Shown piece after piece: positions 24,394 to 44,911 of a DNA stretch of 47,234 bases. Both the position numbers and the translations under genes were made by a program. Origin of the DNA: a virus; IMG/VR virus record IMGVR_UViG_3300027765_000001, positions 1 through 47,234 of that record. One strand, given 5' to 3'. How positions within the stretch are numbered: the stretch's first letter is position 1; each line of letters opens with the position of its first letter. Under the pieces are notes generated by a model that ran no database searches, was not told where the DNA came from, and saw only the letters and a list, made by a program, of their open reading frames with translations.

Positions 24394-25076
24394 GCGCCCT
24401 CCATGGGTCGGACCTGGCCCATGGCCAGGACGGGCTTGTCGTGGGTGATGACCAGTGCGCCGTCAACGGCGCGCACGGTCGCGTCGCCCGGCAGGGCGAT
24501 CTCGTACTGGGCTCCGCCCTCGATGGCGTACGCCACGGCGTACGGAGGGCGGCGGGGAGGCTCCGGCAGGGGTGTCATTTCACAGAGGCGCTCGAACGCC
24601 TCCAGGCGCCGCCGCGCCTCTTCGTCCTCCGGAGCCTCCGGCTCGATGGGGTACTGGGCGACGGTGTCGTCCCAGTTGAAGGTGCCCCCATTGGGGATGG
24701 GGGCACTGTGCGGGCCCTCGTGCTCCTCGCTCAGAGAGCACAGGAAGCCCTCTCCGGGCTTGTGGAACTGCGCGTGGCAGCGCGGAGCCTTCGGCTCCCC
24801 GGCGGTCTCCGCGTCCTTCGGGACGAAGGCGTGCGCCCAGGCGCTCGTGCACTCCACGCAGGAGCCACCGCCCTCCAGGCCCTCAAGGTGCCGCCTGCGG
24901 GAGTGCCCGCAGCGGCACTTCTTGTCCAGCGATGAGCCCCCGGAGCCCTTCGGCTCCGCCAGGTTGAACCGATGCATGGGATCTTCATGGCTGGCGGCCA
25001 GCCAGCACCGCCGCCCCTGCTCGTTGATGTACGAGCAGCGCGGTCCTTCATTCTCCGAGGAGACGACGGAGCCCAT
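24390..25076 (-). CDS. Hypothetical Cys/His-rich protein (probable metal-binding)
   Basis: 228 aa with CSYINEQGRRC, CRCGHSRRRH, CVEC and further Cys/His clusters. Confidence 0.55.
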   Translation of the reverse strand: MGSVVSSENEGPRCSYINEQGRRCWLAASHEDPMHRFNLAEPKGSGGSSLDKKCRCGHSRRRHLEGLEGGGSCVECTSAWAHAFVPKDAETAGEPKAPRCHAQFHKPGEGFLCSLSEEHEGPHSAPIPNGGTFNWDDTVAQYPIEPEAPEDEEARRRLEAFERLCEMTPLPEPPRRPPYAVAYAIEGGAQYEIALPGDATVRAVDGALVITHDKPVLAMGQVRPMEGA

Positions 25077-25692
25077 CTGGGCCCTCCTTCAGGTACAGCG
25101 AGTTCACGTCCTCGCCTTTCGGTAGGCGTACGGGGATGGCCCGTACGGCCTCGATCAGCTTTTTGTTCAGGCCCTTGCCTGCGTCGTCCGCGTCGCCGAA
25201 GGCGTACACGCGGGTGAAGTCCTGGAAGCACAGGCGGAAGTAGTCCTCCCAGGCGTTCACGCCTGAGACGCCTACGGCGGGGATGCCACAGGCGCTCAGG
25301 GTGATCGTGTCGATCTCCCCTTCGCAGATGCAGATGACATCCCCCGGGGCCTTCAGGTCCCGCACGTTGAACAAGTTCACCGGAAGCCCTTCGGGCTTCA
25401 GGTACTTGCGGTGTCCCTCGACTGCCTTGCAGTCGTGGTCCGCTATGCAGCGGTAGTTGGCGTTCACCACGCCTGCCGGCGTGACGTACGGGATTGAGAG
25501 CCTGCCCGTCAGGGCCTCATGGCCCTGGGCCGGCCGGCGTACGACGCCGAGCCGGAACCGCCGGGCCACTTCGGGGCTGATGCCCCGCTTGGCCAGGTAC
25601 CCCTGGCCCTGGGGGTCCGACTCCAGATCTTCCTGATAGGCGGCCGTGGCCGCCTCCAGGGCCATGCGTTCTTCGATGGACAGGGACCTCAC
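25048..25692 (-). CDS. Toprim-domain primase subunit (DnaG catalytic core-like)
   Basis: ICICEGEIDTITL...VYAFGDADDAGKG is the Toprim E...DxD signature. GAAGGAG SD. GTGA coupling to the zinc-finger ORF. Confidence 0.8.
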   Translation of the reverse strand: MRSLSIEERMALEAATAAYQEDLESDPQGQGYLAKRGISPEVARRFRLGVVRRPAQGHEALTGRLSIPYVTPAGVVNANYRCIADHDCKAVEGHRKYLKPEGLPVNLFNVRDLKAPGDVICICEGEIDTITLSACGIPAVGVSGVNAWEDYFRLCFQDFTRVYAFGDADDAGKGLNKKLIEAVRAIPVRLPKGEDVNSLYLKEGPDGLRRLLGE

Positions 25693-26090
25693 GTGCTCCT
25701 TCTCCCCGGAGGGACGTACCTCCGTCCAGGAACCGCTGTGCGGCCCTCTCCGGGCCGCTGATAGCGGCTGCGTACCGATTGCTTCATCTCGATGCCTGCG
25801 GCCCGCAGGATGGGCTCCAGGCGCTTCAGCGCCTCGGCCTTGTCGCAGTGCTCCATAGCCATGACCAAGTGCACGGCAGTGCCCTTGAAGCCGCAGGCAA
25901 AGCAGAAGGCCACCTCTTTGTCGGTGTTCACCGTCAGGGATGGCCTTCGCTCGCCGTGGACTGGACAGAGCGTGATCTGCTCGCCCCAGCGAGAGCCGTG
26001 CAGTTCTACGCCGTAGTGCTCCAGCGCGGCTCTCAGTAGCCCGTCTCCTTCAGAGTCGCGGCGGCCAGGAGTACGTCCATACGAAGCCAT
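25689..26090 (-). CDS. CHC2 zinc-finger primase subunit (DnaG N-terminal-like)
   Basis: CPVHGERRPSLTVNTDKEVAFCFACGFKGTAVHLV is the CHC2 pattern. The ATG at 26090 follows AAGGGGGAG but overlaps the upstream gene by 58 nt. A CTG at 26036 is an alternative start. Confidence 0.65.
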   Translation of the reverse strand: MASYGRTPGRRDSEGDGLLRAALEHYGVELHGSRWGEQITLCPVHGERRPSLTVNTDKEVAFCFACGFKGTAVHLVMAMEHCDKAEALKRLEPILRAAGIEMKQSVRSRYQRPGEGRTAVPGRRYVPPGRRST

Positions 26091-26443
26091 GCCAGCTCCC
26101 CCTTTGCCACTGCCTGGGGGCCGCCGTGCCGCAGTGCCGCAGGCACCATGTCGGCCCGCATGTAAGCGTCCCACTGGCCCACTGGCTTGCGCGCACGCTT
26201 CACAACCAGGACGCAGGCGGAGGCGCCTGCGTTGGCCATCTCCGCCTCGGTCTCCCGCCGCCAGGCGGCCAGCTCCTGCCGCGCAGCGGCCTTGACCTCG
26301 ATGACCACGCCGGGAATCCCGGCGACATCGCCCTTGTCCTTGTTGCCCGACAGGGCCCGGCGCTCCGCCGCCGGCCACCAGTTCTGGAGGTAGCGCACGA
26401 CCTCGCGTTCCGCGGTCGTGCCCTTTGCCTTCGCCTTGCTCAC
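26033..26443 (-). CDS. PD-(D/E)XK nuclease, Holliday-junction-resolvase-like
   Basis: GTTAEREVVRYL...GDVAGIPGVVIEVK fits the E...D...ExK pattern. GTG overlaps the upstream TAG. Confidence 0.6.
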   Translation of the reverse strand: MSKAKAKGTTAEREVVRYLQNWWPAAERRALSGNKDKGDVAGIPGVVIEVKAAARQELAAWRRETEAEMANAGASACVLVVKRARKPVGQWDAYMRADMVPAALRHGGPQAVAKGELAWLRMDVLLAAATLKETGY

Positions 26444-26652
26444 TAGCAGCACCCCCGCATGTGGGACCAGGCCCGCCTGAAGGCGGCGCCCTGACTGGGG
26501 AGCGTGACCAGCGACACCCTGTTGGTGTCGTGGTCGCAGTGGTGTTCCCAGGTCCACAGACCTGGGGCGATCCGGAAGACCCGGGCCCGGACGTACAGCC
26601 GCACAGGCGGCAGGTCATGGCCGCGCAGCGGCAAGACGTGCAGATCGGCCAT
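26443..26652 (-). CDS. Hypothetical protein (69 aa)
   Basis: GAGGAGAAG SD. TGATG coupling. Internal start of track ORF 26443..26856. Confidence 0.5.
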   Translation of the reverse strand: MADLHVLPLRGHDLPPVRLYVRARVFRIAPGLWTWEHHCDHDTNRVSLVTLPSQGAAFRRAWSHMRGCC

Positions 26653-27513: not shown

Positions 27514-27764
27514 TTGGACGGCCGCCCTTCGGGCCACAGGGACGGGTCATCCCCGAAGCCCAGTTCGCTGAACAGTCGCCCGGCTGTGTCACGCATGTCA
27601 CCGTTCAGGGCGAAGTCCTGGCCGCGAGCGGCGGCGTTCAGGATCCACTTCAAGCCGTCCATGGCGTACTCGTTGACGACCATGGTTGTCACCTGAAACT
27701 GGTGACTGCTCCCGCAGTCACAGGGCACGGTCTTGGTATCCGTGCCCTTGATCTCGATACTCAC
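27510..27764 (-). CDS. Hypothetical protein (84 aa)
   Basis: GTGA-coupled start inside track ORF 27510..28226. Confidence 0.45.
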   Translation of the reverse strand: MSIEIKGTDTKTVPCDCGSSHQFQVTTMVVNEYAMDGLKWILNAAARGQDFALNGDMRDTAGRLFSELGFGDDPSLWPEGRPSK

Positions 27765-28600
27765 TTCCACCACTGCCCTTCGTCGCCCGCATGGGCGTGC
27801 TCGTAGCCCGCGTACGCGGGCATGGGGATGTAGTCCGTGACCCGCGAAGTTGCGGGGTCCACGGACATCCGGAACGGGTTCTTCGCGTCCGGATCTGACT
27901 TGGCCTTGCGGACCTTGACTCCGGCGGCCCACATGCCGCCCTCGTTGTCCATGCCGACGTTGACCATCACGGCCGGAAGGCCGGAGATCTTCCCCAGGAC
28001 ATCGACCCGGGACGGGACCGGATAGCCCTTGGCCCCGTCCGTGCAGTGATGCACCAGGATCACTGCCGCCTCGGTCTCCCTGGCTATCGCCAGGGACTGC
28101 ATCATGACCTCGCGCAGAGCGCCCCATTCGTCCAGTCCGTCCAGGACGACGTTCTTCAAGATGTCGATCAGGATCACCTTCGGCCACAGGCCGTTGACCT
28201 CGTGATATGCGTACAGCTCCAGCCACACGTCATCCAGGTGCAGTGGCACCTGGAAGTTCCATTGGATGTGGTCGAAGCGCGCCAGCGCTTGCGCCGCGTC
28301 CTGCGGCGCGGAGGAGATCCACTCCTCCATCGCTTCCGAGGTCTTGCCCGAGGTCATGGCCAGCAGCCGGCTGGCCACCGTCAAGTCGTCGGAGTCGTTG
28401 GAGAAGCCCAGGGTCGGAAGACCCATGTTCACGATGGCATTCAACGCCAACATCGTTTTGAACGAGCCGGGTCTCCCGGCGATCATGTGCACGTTCTTGG
28501 GGTAGAACCGGATACCCCGATCGGCCCATGACGCGAAGGGCGCCGGGAGGGGGTCAACCCCCACGGCGCCCTTGGTCACGGCCCGGCTGAGCCTCTTCAC
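27761..28600 (-). CDS. DnaB-C-terminal-like RecA-fold ATPase (helicase candidate)
   Basis: Walker A IAGRPGSFKTMLALN and Walker B KVILIDIL. GTGA-coupled internal start of track ORF 27761..29044. Confidence 0.65.
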   Translation of the reverse strand: MKRLSRAVTKGAVGVDPLPAPFASWADRGIRFYPKNVHMIAGRPGSFKTMLALNAIVNMGLPTLGFSNDSDDLTVASRLLAMTSGKTSEAMEEWISSAPQDAAQALARFDHIQWNFQVPLHLDDVWLELYAYHEVNGLWPKVILIDILKNVVLDGLDEWGALREVMMQSLAIARETEAAVILVHHCTDGAKGYPVPSRVDVLGKISGLPAVMVNVGMDNEGGMWAAGVKVRKAKSDPDAKNPFRMSVDPATSRVTDYIPMPAYAGYEHAHAGDEGQWWK

Positions 28601-28815
28601 TCGCCTTCGCTGGGCAGGCGGTAGCCTGCCGCATCCAACCGGAAGGCCAAGTCGGTGGCGTCCACGCCGCCAACGTCGTTGGCCTCGATGCACCACTCGT
28701 TGACGATGCTCATCACTTCCTGGTGCATGTCCTCCAGGAGAACGATGCGTTCCGCGAGTGCTCGGGCGCTCTCCTGGTAGTACGTCTCGATCCGCTGGTC
28801 CCGGGTGTCGCTCAC
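28597..28815 (-). CDS. Hypothetical protein (72 aa)
   Basis: GTGA-coupled internal start of track ORF 28597..28980. Confidence 0.45.
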   Translation of the reverse strand: MSDTRDQRIETYYQESARALAERIVLLEDMHQEVMSIVNEWCIEANDVGGVDATDLAFRLDAAGYRLPSEGE

Positions 28816-29132
28816 AGCTCCTCGCCGCCCTTCGCGGCGAGCCCGAGTCCGAGCATGACGTGGGACCAGCGGTTGTCCTCGCTGGTCCGATAGACCACCA
28901 GGGCGGGCCAGACCCAGTCCCTGGCCCGCAGGATGCGCAGCATCTCCTCGGGCTCCAGTCCGTTGCCGTGGCTGGTCCACGCCGGTATCGGCGTGATGTG
29001 GCTGCTGGGCCGGAACGGCGCATGGTACTCGGTGGCACCGACATTGCGGTCGCGGAGGATTTTGTTGACTTCCACGACCACGGCTTCGGCCTCGCGGCCG
29101 TCCGGGAACAGGACGAAGGTGGCGGCGGTCAT
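28812..29132 (-). CDS. Hypothetical protein (106 aa)
   Basis: ATGA-coupled internal start of track ORF 28812..29909. Confidence 0.5.
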   Translation of the reverse strand: MTAATFVLFPDGREAEAVVVEVNKILRDRNVGATEYHAPFRPSSHITPIPAWTSHGNGLEPEEMLRILRARDWVWPALVVYRTSEDNRWSHVMLGLGLAAKGGEEL

Positions 29133-30350: not shown

Positions 30351-30973
30351 TCGGCGAAGCGTTCGCCGATCCATTGCGTGTACGCCGGCGGCAGCATCTC
30401 CACCAGCTCCTCGTGGACATCCGTCCAGTCGATGCCCATGGCCCTTTGGGCCTCGGGGACGGTGGCCTTGCCACCGCCCTTGCCGTACACGGCCACGTAC
30501 GGGCCGTCCCGGACGACGCCGTGACGCATGCCGCGGACGTAGCCGCGGTGCTTGGGGTGTGCTGGCTTGACCGTGGACCAGTTACCCAGCTCGAAGTTCC
30601 GGTGTCGGATGACACCGAGCCCGAACATCTCCCCGCATAGCACCACATCCGGACGGGAGTCCGGATTCTCGATCACATACGGCTTCCCCGTGCGCTCCAG
30701 GAGCGCCTTGACTTGCGGGTACAGGTTCGGATGCAGGTGCCGACGGTGCTTGTTGGTGCCCTTGGTGATGGCCGCGGAGTGCTGGCACGGCGGCGAGGCG
30801 TGGATCAGATCGAAACCGAACGTCGTCCAGTGGACCTCAAGGGCGTCCATCTTGATGAACGTGAACGGGTAGTTCGGCTGGGGGTTGACGTCCACGCCCA
30901 CGACCTCGAAGCCGGCTCGGGCGTAGCCCGTCGCCGCTCCGCCGGCGTTGCAGAAGAGATCCAGTACGCGCAT
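30311..30973 (-). CDS. DNA (cytosine-5) methyltransferase, orphan
   Basis: Motif I DLFCNAGG, motif IV ASPPCQ and an ENV-like VIENP. No adjacent restriction gene. Confidence 0.85.
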   Translation of the reverse strand: MRVLDLFCNAGGAATGYARAGFEVVGVDVNPQPNYPFTFIKMDALEVHWTTFGFDLIHASPPCQHSAAITKGTNKHRRHLHPNLYPQVKALLERTGKPYVIENPDSRPDVVLCGEMFGLGVIRHRNFELGNWSTVKPAHPKHRGYVRGMRHGVVRDGPYVAVYGKGGGKATVPEAQRAMGIDWTDVHEELVEMLPPAYTQWIGERFAEWHRKERACCPSS

Positions 30974-31824
30974 CAGAACGGGATCACCTCATTCGCCGGA
31001 TGCGATGGGTCGAACTGGGCCGCCAGCGGCCCGTTGTTGGCGGCGCAGGACGCGCCGACATCGCAGACGAAGCATGCGGAAGGGAACCCGTTGGCCGGGA
31101 ACTCCCCGGCCTGGATGGTGTCCCAGACCTCGCCGAAGGCGGCGCCCACCGCCTCGGGCGTGTACTCGGCAAGCTCGTATGGCTTGCCGAGCGTGCCCTT
31201 CCTGTTCATGAAGGGCACGCCGATGTCGCACTGGACTCCGTACTTGACCTTGACCAGAGCGGCGTACGCCGCGAACTGCTCGGGCCCCTTCGGGGGCCGC
31301 TTGCCCGTCTTCAGGTCCACGATGATCAGCTTGTCCAGGACCGGATCGCGGAAGATCCGGTCCACGTAGCCCTTGATCTCGACCGGACAGCCGGGCAGCA
31401 TGCCCGACACATCCAATTCGATGGCAGGCAAATTGTCCGGAGTTGTCCAGATCTCGTACGGGCTGCGCTTGCGCCAGTCGAGGTACGCCCGGACGAAGGC
31501 CGGGCCGTTGACGTTCCAGACCTCGATGGGCTCGCTGGGCGAGCGCGCCCAGACGTTCTCGTTCGGCTCCGCCTTGCGAGCCTTGTCGAGTAGGGCGCTG
31601 AAGAGGCGTTCCCAGGCGAAGCCCACATTGAAGGCGCTCTCCTGGCCCATCAGGGCCATTCGGTCGTACTGCTCCGTCGCCTCGTGGACGGCGGAGCCGC
31701 CGGCCGACCATAGGGCGGGTCGGCGCGGAGCCTCGGTCATGTACTTCAGGAACCACGCCTTCGCGCAGCGCTCCAGGCTCTCGCGGGAGCTGTGCGACAG
31801 ATGCTTAAGCTGCTTCACCCACAT
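30973..31824 (-). CDS. Cas4/RecB-family PD-(D/E)XK exonuclease with four-Cys cluster
   Basis: VEIKGYVDRI...IIVDLKTGK nuclease core. N-terminal Cys (ERCAKAW) plus C-terminal CFVCDVGASC (Cx2Cx5C). Confidence 0.75.
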   Translation of the reverse strand: MWVKQLKHLSHSSRESLERCAKAWFLKYMTEAPRRPALWSAGGSAVHEATEQYDRMALMGQESAFNVGFAWERLFSALLDKARKAEPNENVWARSPSEPIEVWNVNGPAFVRAYLDWRKRSPYEIWTTPDNLPAIELDVSGMLPGCPVEIKGYVDRIFRDPVLDKLIIVDLKTGKRPPKGPEQFAAYAALVKVKYGVQCDIGVPFMNRKGTLGKPYELAEYTPEAVGAAFGEVWDTIQAGEFPANGFPSACFVCDVGASCAANNGPLAAQFDPSHPANEVIPF

Positions 31825-32143
31825 CCCCCTTCGTCCAGCCCACCGCTTCGCGGGCCTCCTCGGCGGCCTTCTCGGCCGCCCTGCGGCGCCTTCGGCGCAG
31901 CAGGTACCGCTCGTACTGGTCCAGGCCGCCGTACAGGCCGTAGCGCTCGTCCAGGAACGTCTCCAGGCATCGCTGCCTGATCGGGCAGCGGAAGCAGATC
32001 TCCTTGGCCCTGGCCCAGTGCTTCAGGGGGATGGAGCCAGGGCTTCGGCACGGGTCCATCGGGCCCGGGTACCAGAAGGTGTCCTCCAGCTCCTTCGACT
32101 CCATGCCGAAGCAGATCCCGCCGGACAGATCCGGCGGGCTCAT
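31805..32143 (-). CDS. whiB: WhiB-family (Wbl) Fe-S transcription factor
   Basis: C...C...CFRCPIRQRC (Cx2Cx5C) followed by a basic tail RRRRRR. Confidence 0.8.
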   Translation of the reverse strand: MSPPDLSGGICFGMESKELEDTFWYPGPMDPCRSPGSIPLKHWARAKEICFRCPIRQRCLETFLDERYGLYGGLDQYERYLLRRRRRRAAEKAAEEAREAVGWTKGDVGEAA

Positions 32144-32489: not shown

Positions 32490-33926
32490 CTAGTGACGCC
32501 ATACGGGTTCGATCAGGTCGGGGTTGAACTTCACCACCCCCTTGCCTTGGGGGTGCACGATCACGCCCTCCAGGCTCCGCAGGATCAGCGCCCGCTGGCT
32601 CGGGAGTGGGAGGGCGTCGAACGCCTCCCGCGTGTGCTCCACGACCTCGTTGCGCCTGCCTTCGCGCTCCGCGCGACGCTTGAGCGTCGCCAGCTCCTTC
32701 TGCTTCTGCTCCAGATCCTGGAGCAGTGGAAGGGCAGTGGCCATGGTGATCTGATTGGCGATCACCGCGTCCCGTAGCTGCTTCAGGTCCGCGGTGCGCG
32801 AATCCAGCTCGCGCTGGTGCGCCTCGGTCCAGCCGGCCGCCACGAACTTCAGCTGCGCGCGCTGCTGGTCGGCCAGGACCAGCTCAATGACGAGCTGATC
32901 GATTGGGGCGCCGACTCGGGCAATCTTCCCGCAACCCTTGGCGTAGCCGCTGCGGTCGCACAGGTACACCTGGTACTGCGTGCCGCTGGCGCGGCGCCGC
33001 ATCTGGCCCCGCATGGGGCCGTTGCACGCCCCGCATCGGGCGATGCCCGACAGGAGATAGCGCATGGCGTTCGTACCCGGCCGCTCCCTGGTGGGGCGCC
33101 GGGACTCCAGCGCCTCCACCACCTCGGAGAGGCGGTCCTGGGAGCACAGCGGTTCCCAGGCCGCCGGAACCGGCGTTCCGGTGTCGTCCAGAACGACCTG
33201 CCCCCGGTAGACCTTGATCCCCGCCAGAGCCGGATTCGTCAGAATCCGGCGCACGGTCTTGTGATCCAGGCGCTCCGCGCCGCGGAACCGCTTCCCGGCT
33301 CGGGAGGTCGGGGCGATGCCCCGCTTGAGCCAGTCCGTCTGGATGTCGGAGATCTTCGCGCCGGCCAGGATGGCCTTGTGTGCGGCCAGGATCTCCGCCC
33401 TGGCCTCCGGGTCGGCCGTCAGGCCGTCGGCCTGCCAGCCATAGGGCTGACGCCCCCCGTGGGGCTTGCCTTCGCTGGCAAGTTCCAGTTGCTTGCGCTG
33501 GACGCGGCGGCCGGTGTCGGCCGAGGACTTGTTAGCGAACGCCACCATGACCCGGGCCATGGTCCGGCCGTCGGTGCTGGCCAGATTCACGTCACCCTCA
33601 AGGGTGGCGAACACGAAGTTCGGCCGCTCCTCGAAGATGTCGATGGCCCGCTCAAGGTCGCGCGGCTGACGCGCGAAGCGGTCCAGGTTGTAGACCACCA
33701 CGCCCTGGATGACACCCAGGTGCAGATCGCCCAGCAGGGCCTCGAACTCCGGGCGCACCACCTTGCGCTGGTACGCCGAGAAGTCGTTGTCCTCGTACAC
33801 CCTCACGACGTTCCAGCGACGTACCGCCGCGAGGGCGCAGCAGTCATCCCGCTGTCTGGCAACGCCCTTGGCGTCGCCTTCGCTATCGTCGGAGATGCGT
33901 ACGTAGACCCCCACGTCGATGGGCAT
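32490..33926 (-). CDS. int: Large serine recombinase (integrase)
   Basis: VGVYVRISDD...GVARQRDDC...VVVYNLDRFAR is the resolvase catalytic domain, followed by a long recombinase/zinc-ribbon/coiled-coil C-terminus. The ATG at 33926 follows GGGGAGGA. The track start at 34010 lacks an SD. Confidence 0.9.
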   Translation of the reverse strand: MPIDVGVYVRISDDSEGDAKGVARQRDDCCALAAVRRWNVVRVYEDNDFSAYQRKVVRPEFEALLGDLHLGVIQGVVVYNLDRFARQPRDLERAIDIFEERPNFVFATLEGDVNLASTDGRTMARVMVAFANKSSADTGRRVQRKQLELASEGKPHGGRQPYGWQADGLTADPEARAEILAAHKAILAGAKISDIQTDWLKRGIAPTSRAGKRFRGAERLDHKTVRRILTNPALAGIKVYRGQVVLDDTGTPVPAAWEPLCSQDRLSEVVEALESRRPTRERPGTNAMRYLLSGIARCGACNGPMRGQMRRRASGTQYQVYLCDRSGYAKGCGKIARVGAPIDQLVIELVLADQQRAQLKFVAAGWTEAHQRELDSRTADLKQLRDAVIANQITMATALPLLQDLEQKQKELATLKRRAEREGRRNEVVEHTREAFDALPLPSQRALILRSLEGVIVHPQGKGVVKFNPDLIEPVWRH

Positions 33927-34021
33927 GCGGTCCTCCCCTGGTGCCGGGCTCTCAGCAATAGGGGTGACAGTACCGTAAGTTGGCTTAGTGAGATCTTTAC
34001 GCCAATCCATGGTGTTGGATT
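33927..34021. other. Candidate attP region (95-bp AT-richer gap directly upstream of int)
   Basis: Positional inference only. I could not define a core or arm symmetry by eye. Confidence 0.3.
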
Positions 34022-38136: not shown

Positions 38137-38346
38137 TCAGACCTCGAAGCCCTGGGCGAACCGGGTGAACGCGCTCCACGCGGAGCGCTCAACCAGCAGG
38201 GTGGCCCCGTCGGGGCCCTCCTTGCCGTCCTTCACGCCGACGGGGCCGGCGGCAGGACGGGCGACGTAGACGCAGTTCTCGGGGTTGCTGTAGCTGGACT
38301 TGACGAATCCGGCTCCGTTGTGGGTTCCCAGATCTTCCCTGAGCAT
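38137..38346 (-). CDS. DUF397 (BldB-like) small protein
   Basis: FVKSSYSNPENCVYVA...VGVKDGKEGPDGATLLVERSAWSAFTRF is the DUF397 signature. GAGAGGAG SD. Confidence 0.8.
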   Translation of the reverse strand: MLREDLGTHNGAGFVKSSYSNPENCVYVARPAAGPVGVKDGKEGPDGATLLVERSAWSAFTRFAQGFEV

Positions 38347-39008
38347 TCGTACAGCTCCTCTCGGATGAACTCCCGGGAGTCGCGCGTGCTGAGAGCGCGC
38401 CCGACCATGTCGGAGAACATCGCCTTCAGTCTCGTGATGTCCTCGGTGGTGATCGTATAGAAACCGCCGATCACTGTCTCCAGGTGGCCTACGGCCGGTC
38501 CGGGATCGAGTACGAACAGGCTGAACGGCTCCGCCGTGACGGGAACCGGAATGTCCTCGGGGACCACGTGGATCACGATGTTGTTCGTGTCCTCGATCAG
38601 CCACAGCAGTTGCCGCAACTGCTCGGCGTGGCTGAAGGCGTTCATCAGGGGGCGTCGGATGGCCTGTTCCCCTACCAGGAACCAGGCTGTGGACATGGAC
38701 AGCGCCTTGCGGCGCGCGAAGAACGCCTCGGACCGCATCCGGCGGTGCGTGACCAGTAGGCCGAGTTCGCCGTGCGGTATGTCCGGGGTGTGCGACTTGA
38801 TCGCGCCCGCGGTGTACGCGGGCGTCTGGAGGAGCCCCGGGATCAGTAGGGGGCTCCACGTGCGGTAGGCCATGGTGCATGCGTCCAGGTCCGCGAGGCG
38901 GTCTATCGCCTGCGCTCCGAGGCCGCCGGCCACCTGGCCGACGCCCCTTTGATCCATGGCCCTTAAGGCTTGCAGTGCGCACTTGGCGCGCATCGAGTTG
39001 TCGTTCAT
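38232..39008 (-). CDS. DUF5753 (WhiJ/Scr1-like) protein lacking the usual N-terminal XRE HTH; contains a TTA codon
   Basis: LIPGLLQTPAYTAGAI is the DUF5753 hallmark, but only 56 aa precede it. The TTA codon lies at 38964-38966. AGGAGAGGG SD. The frame runs 115 nt (38232-38346) into the DUF397 gene. Confidence 0.7.
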   Translation of the reverse strand: MNDNSMRAKCALQALRAMDQRGVGQVAGGLGAQAIDRLADLDACTMAYRTWSPLLIPGLLQTPAYTAGAIKSHTPDIPHGELGLLVTHRRMRSEAFFARRKALSMSTAWFLVGEQAIRRPLMNAFSHAEQLRQLLWLIEDTNNIVIHVVPEDIPVPVTAEPFSLFVLDPGPAVGHLETVIGGFYTITTEDITRLKAMFSDMVGRALSTRDSREFIREELYECSGKIWEPTTEPDSSSPATATPRTASTSPVLPPAPSA

Positions 39009-39034
39009 CGGCTCCCTCTCCTGAGCGTGAACCA

Positions 39035-39063
39035 ATTGTTGCGCACGGTCACGTGCGCTGTCA
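39035..39063 (-). promoter_or_regulatory. Candidate sigma70-type promoter for the DUF5753/DUF397 pair, with a palindromic spacer
   Basis: Minus strand reads CTGACA-17 nt (GCGCACGTGACCGTGCG)-AACAAT, about 27 nt upstream of the ATG. The spacer is the inverted repeat 39041-39058. Confidence 0.3.
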
Positions 39064-39429
39064 GGCCCTGCGGGCCTGATTCCCTCTCCTGATGGACGTG
39101 CACTCCCGAAGGGGTGCGCCCCGCCTCAACCCGGGAGAGGTTCGGGGAGGCGGGGCGGATCATGGCCCTGCGGGGCCAGGCAACCGCCCCTCATGGGGGC
39201 AGGGGCGGTTGACAAGCTCAGCAGAGCGGGCAGCCTGCGCACACTGTGCGCATGAAATCGGCCCATGGGGCCGCAGGATGCGGCCGGACCTCCTGTTCGT
39301 CCTCCAGGGCCTCCCTGCCCTGGTGCTCGGTCTCGCCGTCCTGAAGGACGCGCTTGGCGCTGTGCTCCTGTGTGATCATCAAGGCTCCCCTGAAGGGGGA
39401 CTGGCAATGCGCGCCCCCCTGGCGCGCAT
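39041..39429. other. Intergenic hairpin cluster
   Basis: Perfect or near-perfect stems at 39041-39058, 39061-39079, 39119-39155, 39181-39211, 39236-39252 and 39407-39429. Confidence 0.7.
39218..39379 (-). CDS. Possible small protein (53 aa) ending CAGCPLC
   Basis: GGGGAG SD followed by ATG. High GC3. However, it lies inside a hairpin-rich region and is below the track cut-off. Confidence 0.35.
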   Translation of the reverse strand: MITQEHSAKRVLQDGETEHQGREALEDEQEVRPHPAAPWADFMRTVCAGCPLC

Positions 39430-39540
39430 GTGGGGTCTGTCAGTCCAAGGGAGCCGACACCGCCCCGGGGGCGCTCACCGCGCCCCGAGGGGGGACAGCG
39501 CGGGAGCGGAGCGGTGCCGGCCGACTTGGGGTGACAGGCG

Positions 39541-39768
39541 TTAGGACCACATGAGATCGGCTACCGCCATCGGGTCCTTCCCGGCGAGCCGGCCCAGTTC
39601 TAGAAGCGTCATCCTCTTGCGTTGTGCGCCCTCCCATACCAGCCGGGGGGACGCTGCTCCGCACAGGAGTTGGATGTTCGCCTCACAGAACAGGGCCATA
39701 GCCCCGGCGTCGTCGGCGCATCCGGCGCCGACCTTGTGCGCAGCGGCGAGTGTCTGTTCGTAGTCCAT
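39541..39768 (-). CDS. Hypothetical protein (75 aa)
   Basis: TGATG-coupled start. Confidence 0.5.
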   Translation of the reverse strand: MDYEQTLAAAHKVGAGCADDAGAMALFCEANIQLLCGAASPRLVWEGAQRKRMTLLELGRLAGKDPMAVADLMWS

Positions 39769-40073: not shown

Positions 40074-40447
40074 CACTTCACCCTCCGGTAGCGCCGGAAG
40101 CCGTTCGCGGGGCGACCCAGCAGGGCCGATGCAGCTTCCATGAAGCCGTCGAACCCTCCCCGCCCCCACGTACCCGGGGGGCGGTCGTCCTTAAGTGGCC
40201 GCACAAGACGGCGGTCGTTGGGGGCGTACATTCCGTCACACTCGTACGCGAACCACTGGCCCTCGGCCTCTAGGAGTACTCCACACTCGAAGCCGTCGAA
40301 CCGACCTTCGAGCCACGGATACACCTTCCATTCGTTGTCACGCTCCGAGTAGACGCAGCAGGCCGCGGGGTTCGTCACGGTGAAAGTGTGGTTCGCGGTC
40401 CCGATCTTGCCGACCGCCTCAATCTCCAGATAGTCAGCGGTGGCCAT
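40073..40447 (-). CDS. Hypothetical protein (124 aa)
   Basis: TGATG-coupled start. Confidence 0.5.
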   Translation of the reverse strand: MATADYLEIEAVGKIGTANHTFTVTNPAACCVYSERDNEWKVYPWLEGRFDGFECGVLLEAEGQWFAYECDGMYAPNDRRLVRPLKDDRPPGTWGRGGFDGFMEAASALLGRPANGFRRYRRVK

Positions 40448-40707
40448 CACTCGCCGCCCGTGCTCTCAAGGGCGATGATGTCGCACCCCGGCCGGCCGGG
40501 CCGGTTCGGGATCCACGTGATCGCGAGGGGCCGCCCCTTGCGGTCCTCGCCGGTCCACTGGTGAACCACGTCTTCGCGGTACTCCGCCGCGATGACGTAG
40601 GCGCGGTGGACCGTGGCGCTGACCTTCTGCGTGGTGAACGCGCCGCCGCTGCCGCGCCCCTCGATGCGGTAGAGCGTGATTCCACGCTCTCGCGTAAGGT
40701 TGCCCAT
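40447..40707 (-). CDS. Hypothetical protein (86 aa)
   Basis: The leader CGAACGGAGAGGACGGAATC precedes the ATG. Internal start of track ORF 40447..40788. Confidence 0.5.
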   Translation of the reverse strand: MGNLTRERGITLYRIEGRGSGGAFTTQKVSATVHRAYVIAAEYREDVVHQWTGEDRKGRPLAITWIPNRPGRPGCDIIALESTGGE

Positions 40708-40737
40708 GATTCCGTCCTCTCCGTTCGGGATCACCAA

Positions 40738-40767
40738 GAAGCCCCGGGGTGGCACCCCCGGGGCTTC
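40738..40767 (-). terminator. 12-bp hairpin GAAGCCCCGGGG/CCCCGGGGCTTC
   Basis: Read directly. It lies between palindrome copy A and the next SD. Confidence 0.5.
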
Positions 40768-40768
40768 G

Positions 40769-40784
40769 CCTTGCGACTGCAAGG
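40769..40784. promoter_or_regulatory. Conserved 16-bp palindrome CCTTGCGACTGCAAGG, copy A
   Basis: Identical to 41140-41155. 41490-41506 has a one-base insertion. Each copy sits next to a variable long hairpin. Confidence 0.6.
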
Positions 40785-40830
40785 CCAACAGGCCGTACGT
40801 GCGAGACGTACGGCCGATGGCCCGGCAGGG

Positions 40831-41112
40831 TCAGTCAGGGACCTTCGTACCGTCCGCGTAGCGGCCGGACTTGAAGCGACGCACTCCGGCATCCCACCCC
40901 TTGTTGTAGTGGGGGAGCAGAGGAGGTGTCGGGTAGCGCCGGTTCAGGATCCATGAGGGACACATGCGGCGGCGCGGACCAGGCTCTCCGGGGGCAGGCT
41001 TTTCTTCCTCGCCATAAGCGTCCACGTAGTTCGCGTGGTCCCATCCGCGCTCCGCGCCAACGTCGTACGCGCGCTGTTGCTCCTCCGTGCGCTCGGATGT
41101 GTTCTCAGGCAT
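40831..41112 (-). CDS. Hypothetical protein (93 aa)
   Basis: The leader AATGATCAAGTAGGAGAGGACCTGATC precedes the ATG. Confidence 0.5.
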   Translation of the reverse strand: MPENTSERTEEQQRAYDVGAERGWDHANYVDAYGEEEKPAPGEPGPRRRMCPSWILNRRYPTPPLLPHYNKGWDAGVRRFKSGRYADGTKVPD

Positions 41113-41139
41113 GATCAGGTCCTCTCCTACTTGATCATT

Positions 41140-41155
41140 CCTTGCGACTGCAAGG
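41140..41155. promoter_or_regulatory. Conserved 16-bp palindrome, copy B
   Basis: Read directly. It is flanked by the 13-bp hairpin 41162-41190. Confidence 0.6.
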
Positions 41156-41205
41156 CCAACAGGCAAGACGTGCGTTACGCACGTCTTGCCGATGGTCCGG
41201 CAGGG

Positions 41206-41463
41206 TCACTCAGCCGCGAGACTCGCGGCGATGTCTTGCCAGTCGATCCGATCGAAGTCGGCCCGCGAGATCTGGTAACGCGTGCCCTTGACGGCCTCAT
41301 CAGTGGACGTCCAGAACCACTTCGCCACCCAGTCCCGCAGGGTGGCGCCGGTCTCGTCACGCTGGGCCAGCTCCCGGCCCTCGAAATACAGCTCGTACGT
41401 GTTCTCCAAGAGCAGGGACACGCTGTGCGTTGCCCAGTCCTGGCCGTTGAAGGTCTCGCTCAT
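41206..41463 (-). CDS. Hypothetical protein (85 aa)
   Basis: It has the same 30-nt leader as 41112. Confidence 0.5.
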   Translation of the reverse strand: MSETFNGQDWATHSVSLLLENTYELYFEGRELAQRDETGATLRDWVAKWFWTSTDEAVKGTRYQISRADFDRIDWQDIAASLAAE

Positions 41464-41489
41464 GATCAGGTCCTCTCCTACTTGATCAT

Positions 41490-41506
41490 CCTTGCGGACT
41501 GCAAGG
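41490..41506. promoter_or_regulatory. Conserved palindrome, copy C (CCTTGCGGACTGCAAGG)
   Basis: Read directly. It is flanked by the 11-bp hairpin 41513-41537. Confidence 0.6.
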
Positions 41507-41552
41507 TCAAGGGGGTCACGGTCGGAGACCGTGACCCGATGACCGTACAGGC

Positions 41553-41657
41553 TCATTCCTCGCTGTCGTCATCGTTCTCGGCCGGCTCCGCCGGCTCAGG
41601 CTCCGGGAGCCCCGGCAGGGGCTCGAACATCCCCGCCAGGGGGTGATCCCAGAGCAT
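41553..41657 (-). CDS. Possible acidic peptide (34 aa)
   Basis: TGATG coupling. High GC3. Ends ...EPEPAEPAENDDDSEE. Confidence 0.3.
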   Translation of the reverse strand: MLWDHPLAGMFEPLPGLPEPEPAEPAENDDDSEE

Positions 41658-42067: not shown

Positions 42068-42176
42068 GTCCCGTCCTCTCCTAAACGGCTCATGTGGTCC
42101 CCCGGTGGCACCCGGGGGATGGTCCGTAGGACCGACAGAGGGCACCTGCAAGAGGTGCCCTCGACTGTCCGGCGGA

Positions 42177-42503: not shown

Positions 42504-42606
42504 GACCAGTCCTCTCCTACTGCTCATGTGGCCCGGGGATGGCACTCCCCGGACGGTCTGTACGACCGACAGGGCCCACGGATGTAACGCCGTGGGCCCG
42601 ACTGCC

Positions 42607-42768
42607 TTACAGGCCAAGAACGCGCCCCAGAAGGGCGCGTAGGGCCGCGTACGGATGCCTGCGGGCATCCGCCCGGCGCTCCCGCCGGAAGTCGGCGGGA
42701 GTCATCGCGCGATAGCGCGCGGCTGCGACCGCTATCGCGCGGTCAAGCTGCTCGGGGACCATGGTCAC
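42607..42768 (-). CDS. Hypothetical basic protein (53 aa)
   Basis: GTGA-coupled start inside track ORF 42607..42819. Confidence 0.4.
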   Translation of the reverse strand: MTMVPEQLDRAIAVAAARYRAMTPADFRRERRADARRHPYAALRALLGRVLGL

Positions 42769-42884: not shown

Positions 42885-42990
42885 GATCAGCCTCTCCTGT
42901 CGATCGTGACTACTCATCAGGCAGGCAGGGACACGGCGCACTGCCAGGGTTATCACCTCGTGGCTCACCTGGTGTTACGTGCTGGTGTGC

Positions 42991-43018
42991 CCCTGCCCGC
43001 TTGACGAGACAGGGCCGG
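42991..43018. repeat. 28-bp direct repeat CCCTGCC(C/T)(G/C)(C/T)TTGACGAGACAGGGCCGG, copy 1
   Basis: 25/28 identical to 43330-43357. It overlaps terminator hairpin 43010-43032. Confidence 0.7.
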
Positions 43019-43032
43019 TTGCGCCGGCCCTG
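43010..43032 (-). terminator. Hairpin CAGGGCCGG-ttgcg-CCGGCCCTG after the first early gene
   Basis: 9-bp perfect stem located 8 nt after the stop at 43040. Confidence 0.5.
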
Positions 43033-43039
43033 CAACGTC

Positions 43040-43213: not shown

Positions 43214-43230
43214 GTGCAGTCCTCTCCTGA

Positions 43231-43252
43231 CTGTCTCGTCAGAGAGGCAGGG
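43231..43252. repeat. Inverted copy (21/22) of 43330-43351, abutting the SD of the first early gene
   Basis: CTGTCTCGTCAGAGAGGCAGGG compared with the reverse complement CTGTCTCGTCAAAGAGGCAGGG. Confidence 0.7.
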
Positions 43253-43329
43253 AAGTCCGGTAAGCGCACGGGCAACCGCTTGACGCGGTTGCGGAACGAA
43301 CTCCGGGCATGCCGCCCGTACTGGGGCTG

Positions 43330-43357
43330 CCCTGCCTCTTTGACGAGACAGGGCCGG
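43330..43357. repeat. 28-bp direct repeat, copy 2
   Basis: See 42991-43018. Confidence 0.7.
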
Positions 43358-43737: not shown

Positions 43738-43923
43738 ACCGTAAAGCGATTGCAAAGAGTGTGGATCATGGGGCTGAGATGGTGAAGATCTCGTGAAAAC
43801 CACAGGTCGTGACACCTCGTGAGGCGGGAGCCTCTGGCCACGTGCGGCGCCATCGGCGCTCGCATCCGTAGATCCATGTGCGGTTCCGATGCCTCAAAGG
43901 GCACCGGATGCCCTGTCCGGGCG

Positions 43924-44911
43924 CGCGGTCTTGCACCGCGTGCCGCGGTGTGCCTCTCCCCGCGTAGAACGGGGAGGGTTCATGCACCCTCTAGCGCCCC
44001 CTGAAGCCCCGTCAAGGGGTCGAACGGGGGCGGTTGGCCCAGTGGGGCACGGGACGGCCCAAAGGCCGTCAGAACGGCGTACAGCGCTTCCGGAACGGGA
44101 GTTCCGGCATCACGGCCGGCAAGGCACCGCGCAAGCGGTGATCGGCCGGCGAAGCCTCGCGCGCGCGTACGCGCGAAGAGGGCCGCTCGCCAGAGCGGCC
44201 CGACTGTCGCCTTCAGGCGACCACTTGCGTCCTCACGCCGGACGGCGTGAGGGATCGGCCGCGAACGAGCAGCCTGCCTCGCAGGCTGTCTCGGGAGCGG
44301 TCAGTGATCGAAGATCACTTCCCGCACTGTGCCGCCGTAGGCGGCACGGGTGAGCTGTGCGGAGCACAGCGAACGCAAGCGCGATGACCACATCGAAGAT
44401 GTGGCATCGCATGATCCACACGCACAGAGAGCCGGCCTGTTGGCCGGCTCAGTGGTGTGCACCTGGTGGTGCACACACAGTGTGTGGTGCCTGGTGGCAC
44501 CACACCATGGGGCGACTGGACACCCCCTCAGGCACATAGTGCCTGGTCAGAGGGGGTGGACTGTCGCTCACGCTCCAGTCCAGGGCCTTGTCTCATTGTG
44601 CGCCGTATGGCGCACATTGTCCGATTCTGTCTCTCTTTGGCGCCGAAGGCGCCAGTTTGACCCCGGGGTTTTAAAACCCCGGGCCCTGGACTGGACTGGT
44701 CCGCCCCTGGCGGTGCGTCCCAGACCCCTTAGGAGAGCGCCGAGGGGCGCTCTCAGGGATTTGCGCCTGAAGGCGCATCTGGGCGGCCCCGACAGCCCCG
44801 AGGGGCCGCCACTGTCGCGCGTATGCGCGTGGCGCCATTCAACATAAGGTCAGCAAGTCGTGTCGTCAAGTCTCACCCTCCACTTGAGGGAGGTCGGGGG
44901 TCAGTGACCCC
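43924..44911. other. Dense array of about 25 unrelated GC-rich hairpins in non-coding DNA
   Basis: Coordinates of the individual perfect stems are listed in the first finding. No frame has coding-type GC3. Confidence 0.85.

Follow-up and report, generated by a model that had tools for sequence, protein, structure and literature searches.

The early region and its repeated cassettes

We analysed a 47,234-nucleotide stretch of viral DNA (IMG/VR record IMGVR_UViG_3300027765_000001, positions 1 to 47,234; hereafter the window) for an element that recurs between small genes of its early operon. Three copies, cassettes A, B and C, lie on the minus strand at the g7/g8, g6/g7 and g5/g6 junctions, respectively, between co-directional genes (g5, 41553-41657; g6, 41206-41463; g7, 40831-41112; g8, 40447-40707; all minus strand). 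None of these four genes matched any Pfam or PHROG family. A sequence-only reading of the window had described at these junctions a long hairpin of changing sequence, a conserved palindrome and a Shine-Dalgarno (SD) sequence between two TGATCA hexamers, and had taken the palindrome for a protein operator placed after terminators. The hairpins and palindromes lie exactly where that reading put them, and the cassette layout is genuine, repeated and functional-looking. The comparative evidence below indicates, however, that the cassette is very probably a structure of the sense-strand RNA rather than an operator.

Read 5′ to 3′ on the minus strand, cassette C opens 1 nt past the g5 stop codon (41553-41555) with the up box (CCTGTACGGTCATC, 41538-41551), which provides the 5′ strand of two stems, P1 and P2. 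The variable hairpin follows (HP1, equivalent to stem P3; 41513-41537), an 11-bp perfect stem with the loop UCC, and then the mid box (TTGACCTTGCAG, 41499-41510). The mid box can pair with the up box, as UGACC/GGUCA in P2 and UGCAG/CUGUA in P1, or with a down box to form a short hairpin, HP2 (CCUUGC-AGUCC-GCAAGG, 41490-41506); HP2 is the palindrome, present here as CCTTGCAGTCCGCAAGG. The last element is an SD-presenting hairpin (41461-41489), in which the TGATCA pair supplies the stem AUGAUCA/UGAUCAU around a 14-nt loop that holds the SD, GGAGAGG (41472-41478), and which reaches to the g6 start codon (41461-41463).

Cassette B has the same order. Its up box (CCTGCCGGACCATC, 41191-41204) begins 1 nt past the g6 stop codon (41206-41208), its variable hairpin (HP1/P3, 41162-41190) has a 13-bp stem and the loop UAA, and its mid box (TTGGCCTTGCAG, 41148-41159) overlaps HP2 (CCUUGC-AGUC-GCAAGG, 41140-41155; palindrome CCTTGCAGTCGCAAGG), the two together filling 41140-41159. 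The SD-presenting hairpin (41110-41138; g7 start codon 41110-41112) has the same sequence as that of cassette C. In cassette A, the up box (CCTGCCGGGCCATC, 40816-40829) again lies 1 nt past a stop codon, that of g7 (40831-40833), and is followed by a variable hairpin with a 10-bp stem and the loop CUCGC (HP1/P3, 40791-40815) and by a mid box (TTGGCCTTGCAG, 40777-40788) that overlaps HP2 (40769-40784, again CCTTGCAGTCGCAAGG; together 40769-40788). This cassette carries a third hairpin, HP3 (40738-40767), with a 12-bp G+C stem and the loop GUGCCA, of which UGCCA is conserved, followed by CUUGGUGAU. HP3 is also kept ahead of g8 homologues in relatives, and it is the most terminator-like element among the three cassettes. 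The SD-presenting hairpin of cassette A (40705-40734) pairs GUGAU.CCG with CGG.AUCAU around the SD GGAGAGG (40716-40722), ahead of the g8 start codon (40705-40707).

The repetition is far above chance. CTTGC-N3-6-GCAAG, the palindrome core, occurs three times in the window against 0.12 expected, a count reached in 0 of 100 shuffles, and the whole cassettes fold more stably than their shuffled versions, with z-scores of -4.1, -4.9 and -5.5. The palindrome is present nowhere else in the window, not even around the promoter-like sites that the minus strand has at 44869 and 39064. The leader said to be shared by cassettes B and C, TGATCAAGTAGGAGAGGACCTGATCATG, does occur twice exactly (0.00 expected), though the identical run measures about 28-29 nt and not 30. 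One conserved part had been missed: the segment behind the stop codon, CCTGyyCGGnCATC, is complementary to TTGrCCTTGCAG, which overlaps the palindrome.

A comparative set of 25 cassettes

Protein searches recovered two relatives with g7 and 14 with g6, at 56-99% identity, on contigs (L034-L047) with syntenic early regions that encode the same DUF5753 regulator and serine recombinase; a separate related-locus search with g6 and g7 returned nothing, or one relative at 37%. A 22-base pattern derived from these contigs, CCTGN6CATCGG-N15-34-CCCCTTGN4TGCAG, found genuine copies in further IMG/VR contigs (L049-L053), in GTDB genomes (a Streptomyces sp. t39 scaffold, NZ_RDBP01000240, with two cassettes, and a contig of a Humibacter metagenome-assembled genome) and in JGI metagenomes. 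Six matches on cyanobacterial, Chloroflexi, Firmicute and Acidobacteriota contigs (L054-056, L058, L059 and L063) lack the hairpin and were set aside as chance, which left 25 distinct cassettes for comparison. Searched exactly in IMG/VR, the 16-mer palindrome gave 31 single matches on unrelated contigs, the chance level for a 16-mer, and the leader gave no match. The anchoring to the stop codon is strict: the codon ends 0-5 nt ahead of the up box in all 25 copies, and 0-1 nt ahead of it in 20.

The up box and mid box form a composite hairpin

Across the set, the up box, with consensus CCTGyaCGGyCATC, pairs with the mid box, TTG-N4-TGCAG, over the variable hairpin that separates them. The result is a composite hairpin of 19-23 bp, made of a 4-5 bp P1, a 5-bp P2, a conserved 2x3 internal loop (UC/CCU) and a 9-13 bp P3. 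The sequence of P3 is different in every copy while its pairing is kept, with 255 Watson-Crick, 10 G·U and 5 A·C pairs over the 25 copies.

Several measures show that the lower stem is maintained by compensatory change. P1 and P2 cells are paired in 94.2% of cases, compared with 82.4 ± 1.3 after shuffling (0/500) and 32-49% in slid controls, and their covariation score is 0.36 against 0.13 shuffled (0/500). At the three variable P2 pairs, which carry triplets such as GGU/ACC, GGC/GUC, ACG/CGU, GCG/UGC and AGC/GUU, 71 of 75 cells are paired, compared with 44.9 ± 4.5 when partners are shuffled (0/20000) and 20-44 of 75 in slid registers; counting only the 12 distinct combinations, 32 of 36 remain paired (2/20000). 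The fixed spacing of TTG-N4-TGCAG, which could be mistaken for a -35 element, follows from this pairing. A sigma-70 promoter with TTGACC as its -35 was rejected accordingly: no -10 stands at 16-19 nt, or at any consistent spacing, in the 25 copies.

The palindrome is an alternative, mutually exclusive fold

Part of the mid box doubles as 5′ arm of the 16-bp palindrome, formed with the down box as HP2. Since HP2 and P1/P2 both use the mid box, the two folds are mutually exclusive. The 3′ arm of HP2 covaries with it (CCUUGC/GCAAGG, UCAUGC/GCAUGA, GUCUUGC/GCAAGAC and, with G·U, CGUGUGC/GCACGCG; further pairs in relatives are GGUCAUGC/GCGUGGCC and UGGUUUUGC/GCAGAACCA), and the inner core, TGCAGT...GCA, shows little or no variation across relatives. 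Summed over the set, HP2 energies are -236.7 with the native partners and -161.3 ± 12.8 with permuted ones (0/5000). The base between P1 and P2 has no partner in the long form and forms a U-A, A-U or G-C pair in HP2, which is evidence for HP2 that does not depend on P1/P2.

The two folds are nearly isoenergetic, the extended form being lower by a mean of 1.3 kcal/mol (extended minus alternative, -1.3 kcal/mol) and favoured in 18 of the 25 copies. In the window, the extended form is the predicted minimum free energy (MFE) structure of cassettes C and A, and HP2 that of cassette B, owing to one A·C mismatch in its P2.

The structure belongs to the sense strand, because P1/P2 contains many G·U pairs (33 cells), where the other strand would have A·C mismatches. 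The predicted MFE is likewise lower for the sense strand in 16 of the 25 copies (p = 0.037).

The SD sequence is presented in a hairpin loop

The sequence-only reading had suggested that the TGATCA pair could occlude or present the SD. The stem does form, with the SD in its loop, and the pair turns out to be one version of a general stem that flanks GGAGAGG and has the start codon at its base. Across 84 distinct GGAGAGG-ATG contexts of the phage group, native flanks gave an energy sum of -503.9, compared with -219 ± 20 when flanks were permuted (0/3000). Only (A/T)GGAGAGG is fixed; the flanks vary while keeping their pairing, the immediate ones including cagu/acug, ggu/acc, gac/guu, gcuc/gagc and cccg/cggg.

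We also observed that TGATCATG recurs as the TGA-TC-ATG stop-start junction of directly coupled genes as well as in leaders (1647, 2283 and 2698 in relative L034; 41110, 41461 and 42882 in the window). Its presence in both settings makes GATC directly before ATG a family-wide start context, one that may reflect structure, methylation or restriction avoidance.

A parallel to this leader is found in Cluster K mycobacteriophages, whose start-associated sequences (SAS) and extended start-associated sequences (ESAS) likewise recur only in the non-structural arm and stand a few nucleotides ahead of ATG starts (PMC3203893). The SAS, like the present leader, has an SD core with symmetric outer bases (GGG...CCC in SAS), and ahead of either there is often an inverted repeat whose spacer varies. 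The SAS, however, has one fixed sequence, the 13-mer GGGATAGGAGCCC at 3-8 nt ahead of starts, and the present cassettes lack it, so that only the position is analogous. For the inverted repeats of ESAS, the authors of PMC3203893 saw no support for RNA pairing and preferred protein binding; in the present cassettes, unlike in ESAS, pairing is the dominant signal.

Other structured regions of the operon

Upstream of cassette C, the same operon has four more structured junctions: two cassettes of a second type and two junctions near 43020 and 43350. The second type follows the principle of the first and runs from a post-stop box (UCCGCCGGACAGUC) through a variable hairpin, CUGUC, a small GGUCCUACGGACC hairpin, a hairpin whose UGCCA loop is conserved, and CACAUGA to an SD-loop hairpin. 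One example (42504-42606, minus strand) contains CAGUC, a variable hairpin, an CUGUCGGUCGUACAGACC small hairpin, a UGCCA-loop hairpin and an SD hairpin. In the other (42068-42176, minus strand), the predicted MFE structure joins post-stop UCCGCCGGAC to GUCCUACGGA, a pairing that competes with the small hairpin GGUCCUACGGACC. The post-stop box thus competes with the small hairpin in this type as well, and the pairing covaries in relatives (UCCGUAG/CUACGGA, UCUGUAC/GUACAGA).

At the other two junctions (43226-43354 and 42900-43035, minus strand), further hairpins lie inside a long-range inverted repeat of 22-28 nt, CUGUCUCGUCAaaGaGGCAGGG ... CCCUGCCUcuCUGACGAGACAG. A hammerhead ribozyme was considered at about 42910-43010 on account of an CTGATGAG motif and discarded, the motif being merely one arm of the long inverted repeat.

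The operon also encodes g2b (42607-42762, minus strand; 51 aa), a small Arg-rich protein with FRRERRADARRH, which is found in L034 as well (2704-2919). Its RRERRA stretch is identical to the core of the boxB-binding arginine-rich motif of lambda N, and its gene lies directly upstream of the first type-I cassette (the type of A, B and C) in several relatives. It is a candidate RNA-hairpin-binding protein. As a lambda N-like antiterminator it was not retained: pairwise BLASTP gives an E-value of only 0.01 and Pfam has no match, so the resemblance is a lead only.

Between the best sigma-70-like promoter (44869-44841) and the first small early gene lies a leader of about 1 kb (43880-44845, minus strand) in which no open reading frame passes a codon-position G+C filter. 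This leader is an unbroken series of about 28 perfect hairpins of 6-10 bp with 3-4 nt loops, no two alike in sequence, and its MFE is -600 kcal/mol against -456 ± 9 for shuffled sequence (z = -16). A similar chain occupies the same place in relatives (L037, nt 1-1389; L045/L046, about 1474-2327). ARAGORN called a 'tRNA-Pyl' inside the chain (43915-44001), which is probably spurious.

The nearest cultured phages, e.g. WRightOn (L065, NC_048684), have long composite hairpins directly after early-operon stop codons; the WRightOn early region has a different conserved SD, AAGGGAGAGAG, and not the present cassette. Stop-anchored intercistronic hairpins may be widespread in Streptomyces phages.

Genomic setting

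The window, whose source contig is a 47-kb Logan assembly, has a G+C content of about 68%. Structural genes occupy the plus strand over about 1-23 kb, and a long minus-strand block (about 23.4-43.2 kb) encodes primase pieces (25048-26618), a DnaB-like helicase (27761-29044), a PD-(D/E)XK nuclease (30973-31824), a WhiB protein (31805-32143), a large serine recombinase (32490-34010) and an XRE/DUF5753 regulator (38232-39035). With portals of Streptomyces phages of the genus Manuelvirus, the portal protein shares 52% identity. Megablast and blastn of the region found no DNA-level relative in INPHARED, and tblastn with g6 had no match there. Judged from its recombinase and regulator genes, its Manuelvirus-like portal, the missing INPHARED DNA relative and the cassettes on the Streptomyces sp. 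t39 scaffold, the virus is a temperate-type Streptomyces phage of an uncultured group.

In relatives, the region upstream of the XRE/DUF5753 regulator (L037, 3538-4254; L043, 4091-4271) contains GACTGCGCAGTCGCAGTCGCAAG, which shares GCAGTCGCAAG with the HP2 core. The corresponding region upstream of the window's own regulator (39400-39560) looks different.

Intercistronic processing as a possible function

We tentatively propose that the cassette is a putative intercistronic RNA processing and stability module of the T7 kind, a reading to which we give somewhat less than even confidence. Processing or stabilisation is favoured over termination because the hairpin is 19-23 bp long and split by an internal loop, lies between cistrons, coincides with no promoter or terminator call, and belongs to a phage whose early genes, when scanned against Pfam or PHROGs, revealed neither a sigma factor nor an RNA polymerase. 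The long irregular hairpin would act as an intercistronic processing signal like those that RNase III recognises in the early mRNA of T7. Cleavage on the 3′ side of its internal loop would give the upstream message a protective 3′ end, namely the variable hairpin. The mid box, thereby released, would refold into HP2, which would lie within about 4 nt of the 5′ end newly created downstream and protect it, and the SD of the downstream message would stay exposed in its hairpin loop. As the up box starts 0-5 nt past the stop codon, a terminating ribosome must melt P1/P2 and transiently favour HP2, and translation status could thereby gate processing.

The RNase III signals of T7 reportedly consist of two stems split by an internal loop and lie between early cistrons (Saito & Richardson 1981 and Nicholson et al. 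1988, as listed in PMC7049713). The present cassettes share with R0.3, R0.5, R1.1 and the other T7 signals a position between cistrons of an early polycistronic phage mRNA, and an irregular hairpin of about 20 bp, some two helical turns, whose upper and lower stems are split by an asymmetric internal loop; in both, the hairpin would stay at the 3′ end of the upstream product. They differ in having no sequence similarity to the T7 signals and in belonging to a phage of a high-G+C actinobacterial host, and cleavage of the present element is a prediction. The cassette further has features that the T7 signals lack: the competing HP2, a start right at the stop codon and a conserved SD-loop hairpin.

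A second parallel is the sib site of phage lambda. In sib retroregulation, the RNase III site forms only on read-through of the tI terminator. The likeness is that a terminator-like hairpin becomes a longer helix of the RNase III type once downstream sequence is transcribed and pairs upstream; sib, however, is a single site at the end of int, whereas the present element stands at every junction and has a competing downstream hairpin.

Four points weigh against the processing proposal or the evidence beneath it. Covariation tests on related sequences may inflate shuffle statistics, an effect mitigated by the slid controls and by the diversity of paralogues within single genomes. Sequence-specific recognition, for which RNase III alone would have no need, is suggested by the invariant pairs (CUG/CAG, CA/UG and GG/CC) and by the likewise invariant internal loop. 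Hairpins of single-stranded DNA tolerate G·T pairs as well, so the element could conceivably be a strand-specific structure of single-stranded DNA. Lastly, near-equal energies of the two folds are unnecessary for a cut followed by refolding, and fit an equilibrium switch better.

Alternative explanations

The main and serious rival is termination without a U-tail: the variable hairpins would be tail-less ('I-shaped') intrinsic terminators or attenuators that set a falling expression gradient or separate units, the rest of the cassette serving re-initiation or being incidental. In its favour, the hairpins are strong and rich in G+C, with perfect stems (-15 to -25 kcal/mol) that stand directly behind stop codons. 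There is a precedent in a Streptomyces temperate phage, phiC31, in whose early region hairpins without U-tails reportedly ended transcription (Ingham et al. 1995, reference 24 in PMC3993855). The promoter early stem-loops (PeSLs) of T4-type phages also terminate (PMC2839356), and HP3 of cassette A does have a short U-containing tail. Nevertheless, the hairpins lack a canonical terminator's U-tract and are followed by CCCCUUG or CCUGUUGG; according to PMC3993855, mycobacterial RNA polymerase requires a U-tract in vitro. Scans found no sigma-70 promoter-like or U-tract terminator sites inside the three cassettes (40700-41560), and no sigma-70-like or repeated promoter stands downstream of the tail-less hairpins. 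The only two minus-strand sigma-70-like promoters in 36-47 kb are those at 44869, upstream of the cassettes, and 39064, downstream of them, so transcripts must read through the cassette run. With at least seven such hairpins in series behind the single detectable promoter, and about 28 more in the leader, efficient termination would silence the operon. No phage sigma factor, RNA polymerase or repeated promoter motif was found, and termination leaves the covarying lower stem, the conserved internal loop and the competing HP2 unexplained. As an account of the cassette we consider it unlikely, although the long hairpins may be terminators.

A similarly low probability attaches to an equilibrium RNA switch that is read by the terminating ribosome, in which a ribosome at the stop codon would favour HP2 and absence of translation the long hairpin. 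Its output would be an event such as Rho access, decay or factor binding, and each gene would be coupled to translation of the preceding one. The geometry suits this idea, as the constant placement of the up box puts P1 and most of P2 inside the established footprint of a terminating ribosome. So do the two exclusive, covarying and nearly isoenergetic folds, and the second cassette type, which has the same up-box competition. On the other hand, no predicted pairing links either fold to the SD hairpin or HP3, and the tight stop-to-hairpin spacing could reflect genome compaction. An attenuator logic between the down box and HP3 was discarded, since inspection of the cassette A sequence showed no complementarity. 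In a wider and equally doubtful form, the cassettes would be candidates for a new class of translation-sensing, two-state intercistronic switch, in which the flip caused by the ribosome decides on cutting or on binding by a phage factor, e.g. the Arg-rich g2b, so that the fate of each message is wired to its neighbour; the hairpin chain of the ~1-kb leader (~28 hairpins) would belong to the same system.

Less probable still is that the cassettes are mainly recombination linkers, boundaries for shuffling, duplicating and exchanging small early genes, as PeSLs are in T4-type phages. Gene order and content do differ between relatives at the cassettes. In L034 the g6 and g7 homologues stand in reverse order relative to the window, different genes stand between equivalent cassettes in L036, L041, L044 and L047, and cassettes B and C share an identical 29-nt leader in front of unrelated genes, which suggests recent homogenisation. 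Taken together, these observations indicate that the cassettes also behave like PeSL-type shuffling boundaries. PeSLs are likewise short composite cassettes from stop to SD/start with a stable stem-loop, repeated between small early ORFans and tied to shuffling of the flanked genes (PMC2839356, PMC4122927), as here for g6, g7 and g8. They are, however, defined by a strong sigma-70 promoter, which the present cassettes lack, and their stem-loops are simple terminators, whereas the present module is two-state. Recombination needs sequence identity rather than compensatory pairing, and the variable hairpin is the least conserved part; a linker role explains the evolutionary spread and not the structural constraints, and is compatible with RNA functions. 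A mobile palindrome of the miniature inverted-repeat transposable element (MITE) or repetitive extragenic palindrome (REP) kind was rejected, as the central hairpin differs in every copy.

The operator reading fares worst. On that view the palindrome would bind a phage regulator, for which the XRE/DUF5753 protein is one candidate, behind terminators, like the conserved inverted repeats (CIRs) of phiC31, and it had in its favour the identical arms of the three window copies, the near-invariant inner core, and a temperate-like phage that encodes a serine recombinase and DNA-binding proteins. A search of the genome and relatives for the palindrome, as the sequence-only reading had advised, showed instead that arms and spacers vary among relatives. 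In L034 alone the copies are GTCATGC-AGTCC-GCATGAC, CCTTGC-AGTTCC-GCAAGG and CGTGTGC-AGT-GCACGCG, with spacers of 5, 6 and 3 nt (3-6 nt overall). No single dimeric DNA-binding protein could accommodate such differences within one genome; compensated change of this kind is just what a hairpin demands. G·U pairs function on the sense strand only, the 5′ arm is common to a second covarying helix with the post-stop box, and no copy lies near any promoter in the window or near the regulator gene.

The analogy with phiC31, which the sequence-only reading had drawn, does not extend to membership in that system. Both are Streptomyces temperate phages with a serine integrase, and in both an early intergenic hairpin is followed by a conserved palindrome. 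In the phiC31 genome, however, the CIR CTACTCACGTGAGTAG is invariant between copies, while the present arms covary, and an early promoter, GGGTTGCCGACTCCCTTAC, is repeated, while the present cassettes have no repeated promoter. The window contains no match to CTACTCACGTGAGTAG or GGGTTGCCGACTCCCTTAC within four mismatches, and tblastn of the phiC31 repressor (gene c) and gp12 against it gave only E > 0.7. On this evidence, a DNA operator is a highly improbable explanation of the palindrome.

Implications

Rfam returned only two matches for the cassettes (E = 0.06 and 0.66), both far under the gathering scores and thus pointing to no family. The module is real, conserved and a previously uncatalogued cis-RNA module. 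Early intergenic repeats are common in actinobacteriophages (the CIRs of phiC31, the SAS and ESAS of Cluster K, and those of Cluster O), mostly unexplained, and usually read as protein-binding sites. The comparative data presented here offer an alternative: a structured RNA with two competing, covarying folds, a stop-codon anchor and an SD-presenting hairpin. If this is true, the cassettes would give reason to re-examine the SAS-like motifs of other phages for RNA structure, and would supply a portable 'insulator' part for Streptomyces synthetic operons. They would also be a tractable model of how high-G+C phages punctuate, stabilise and translate their polycistronic early mRNAs.

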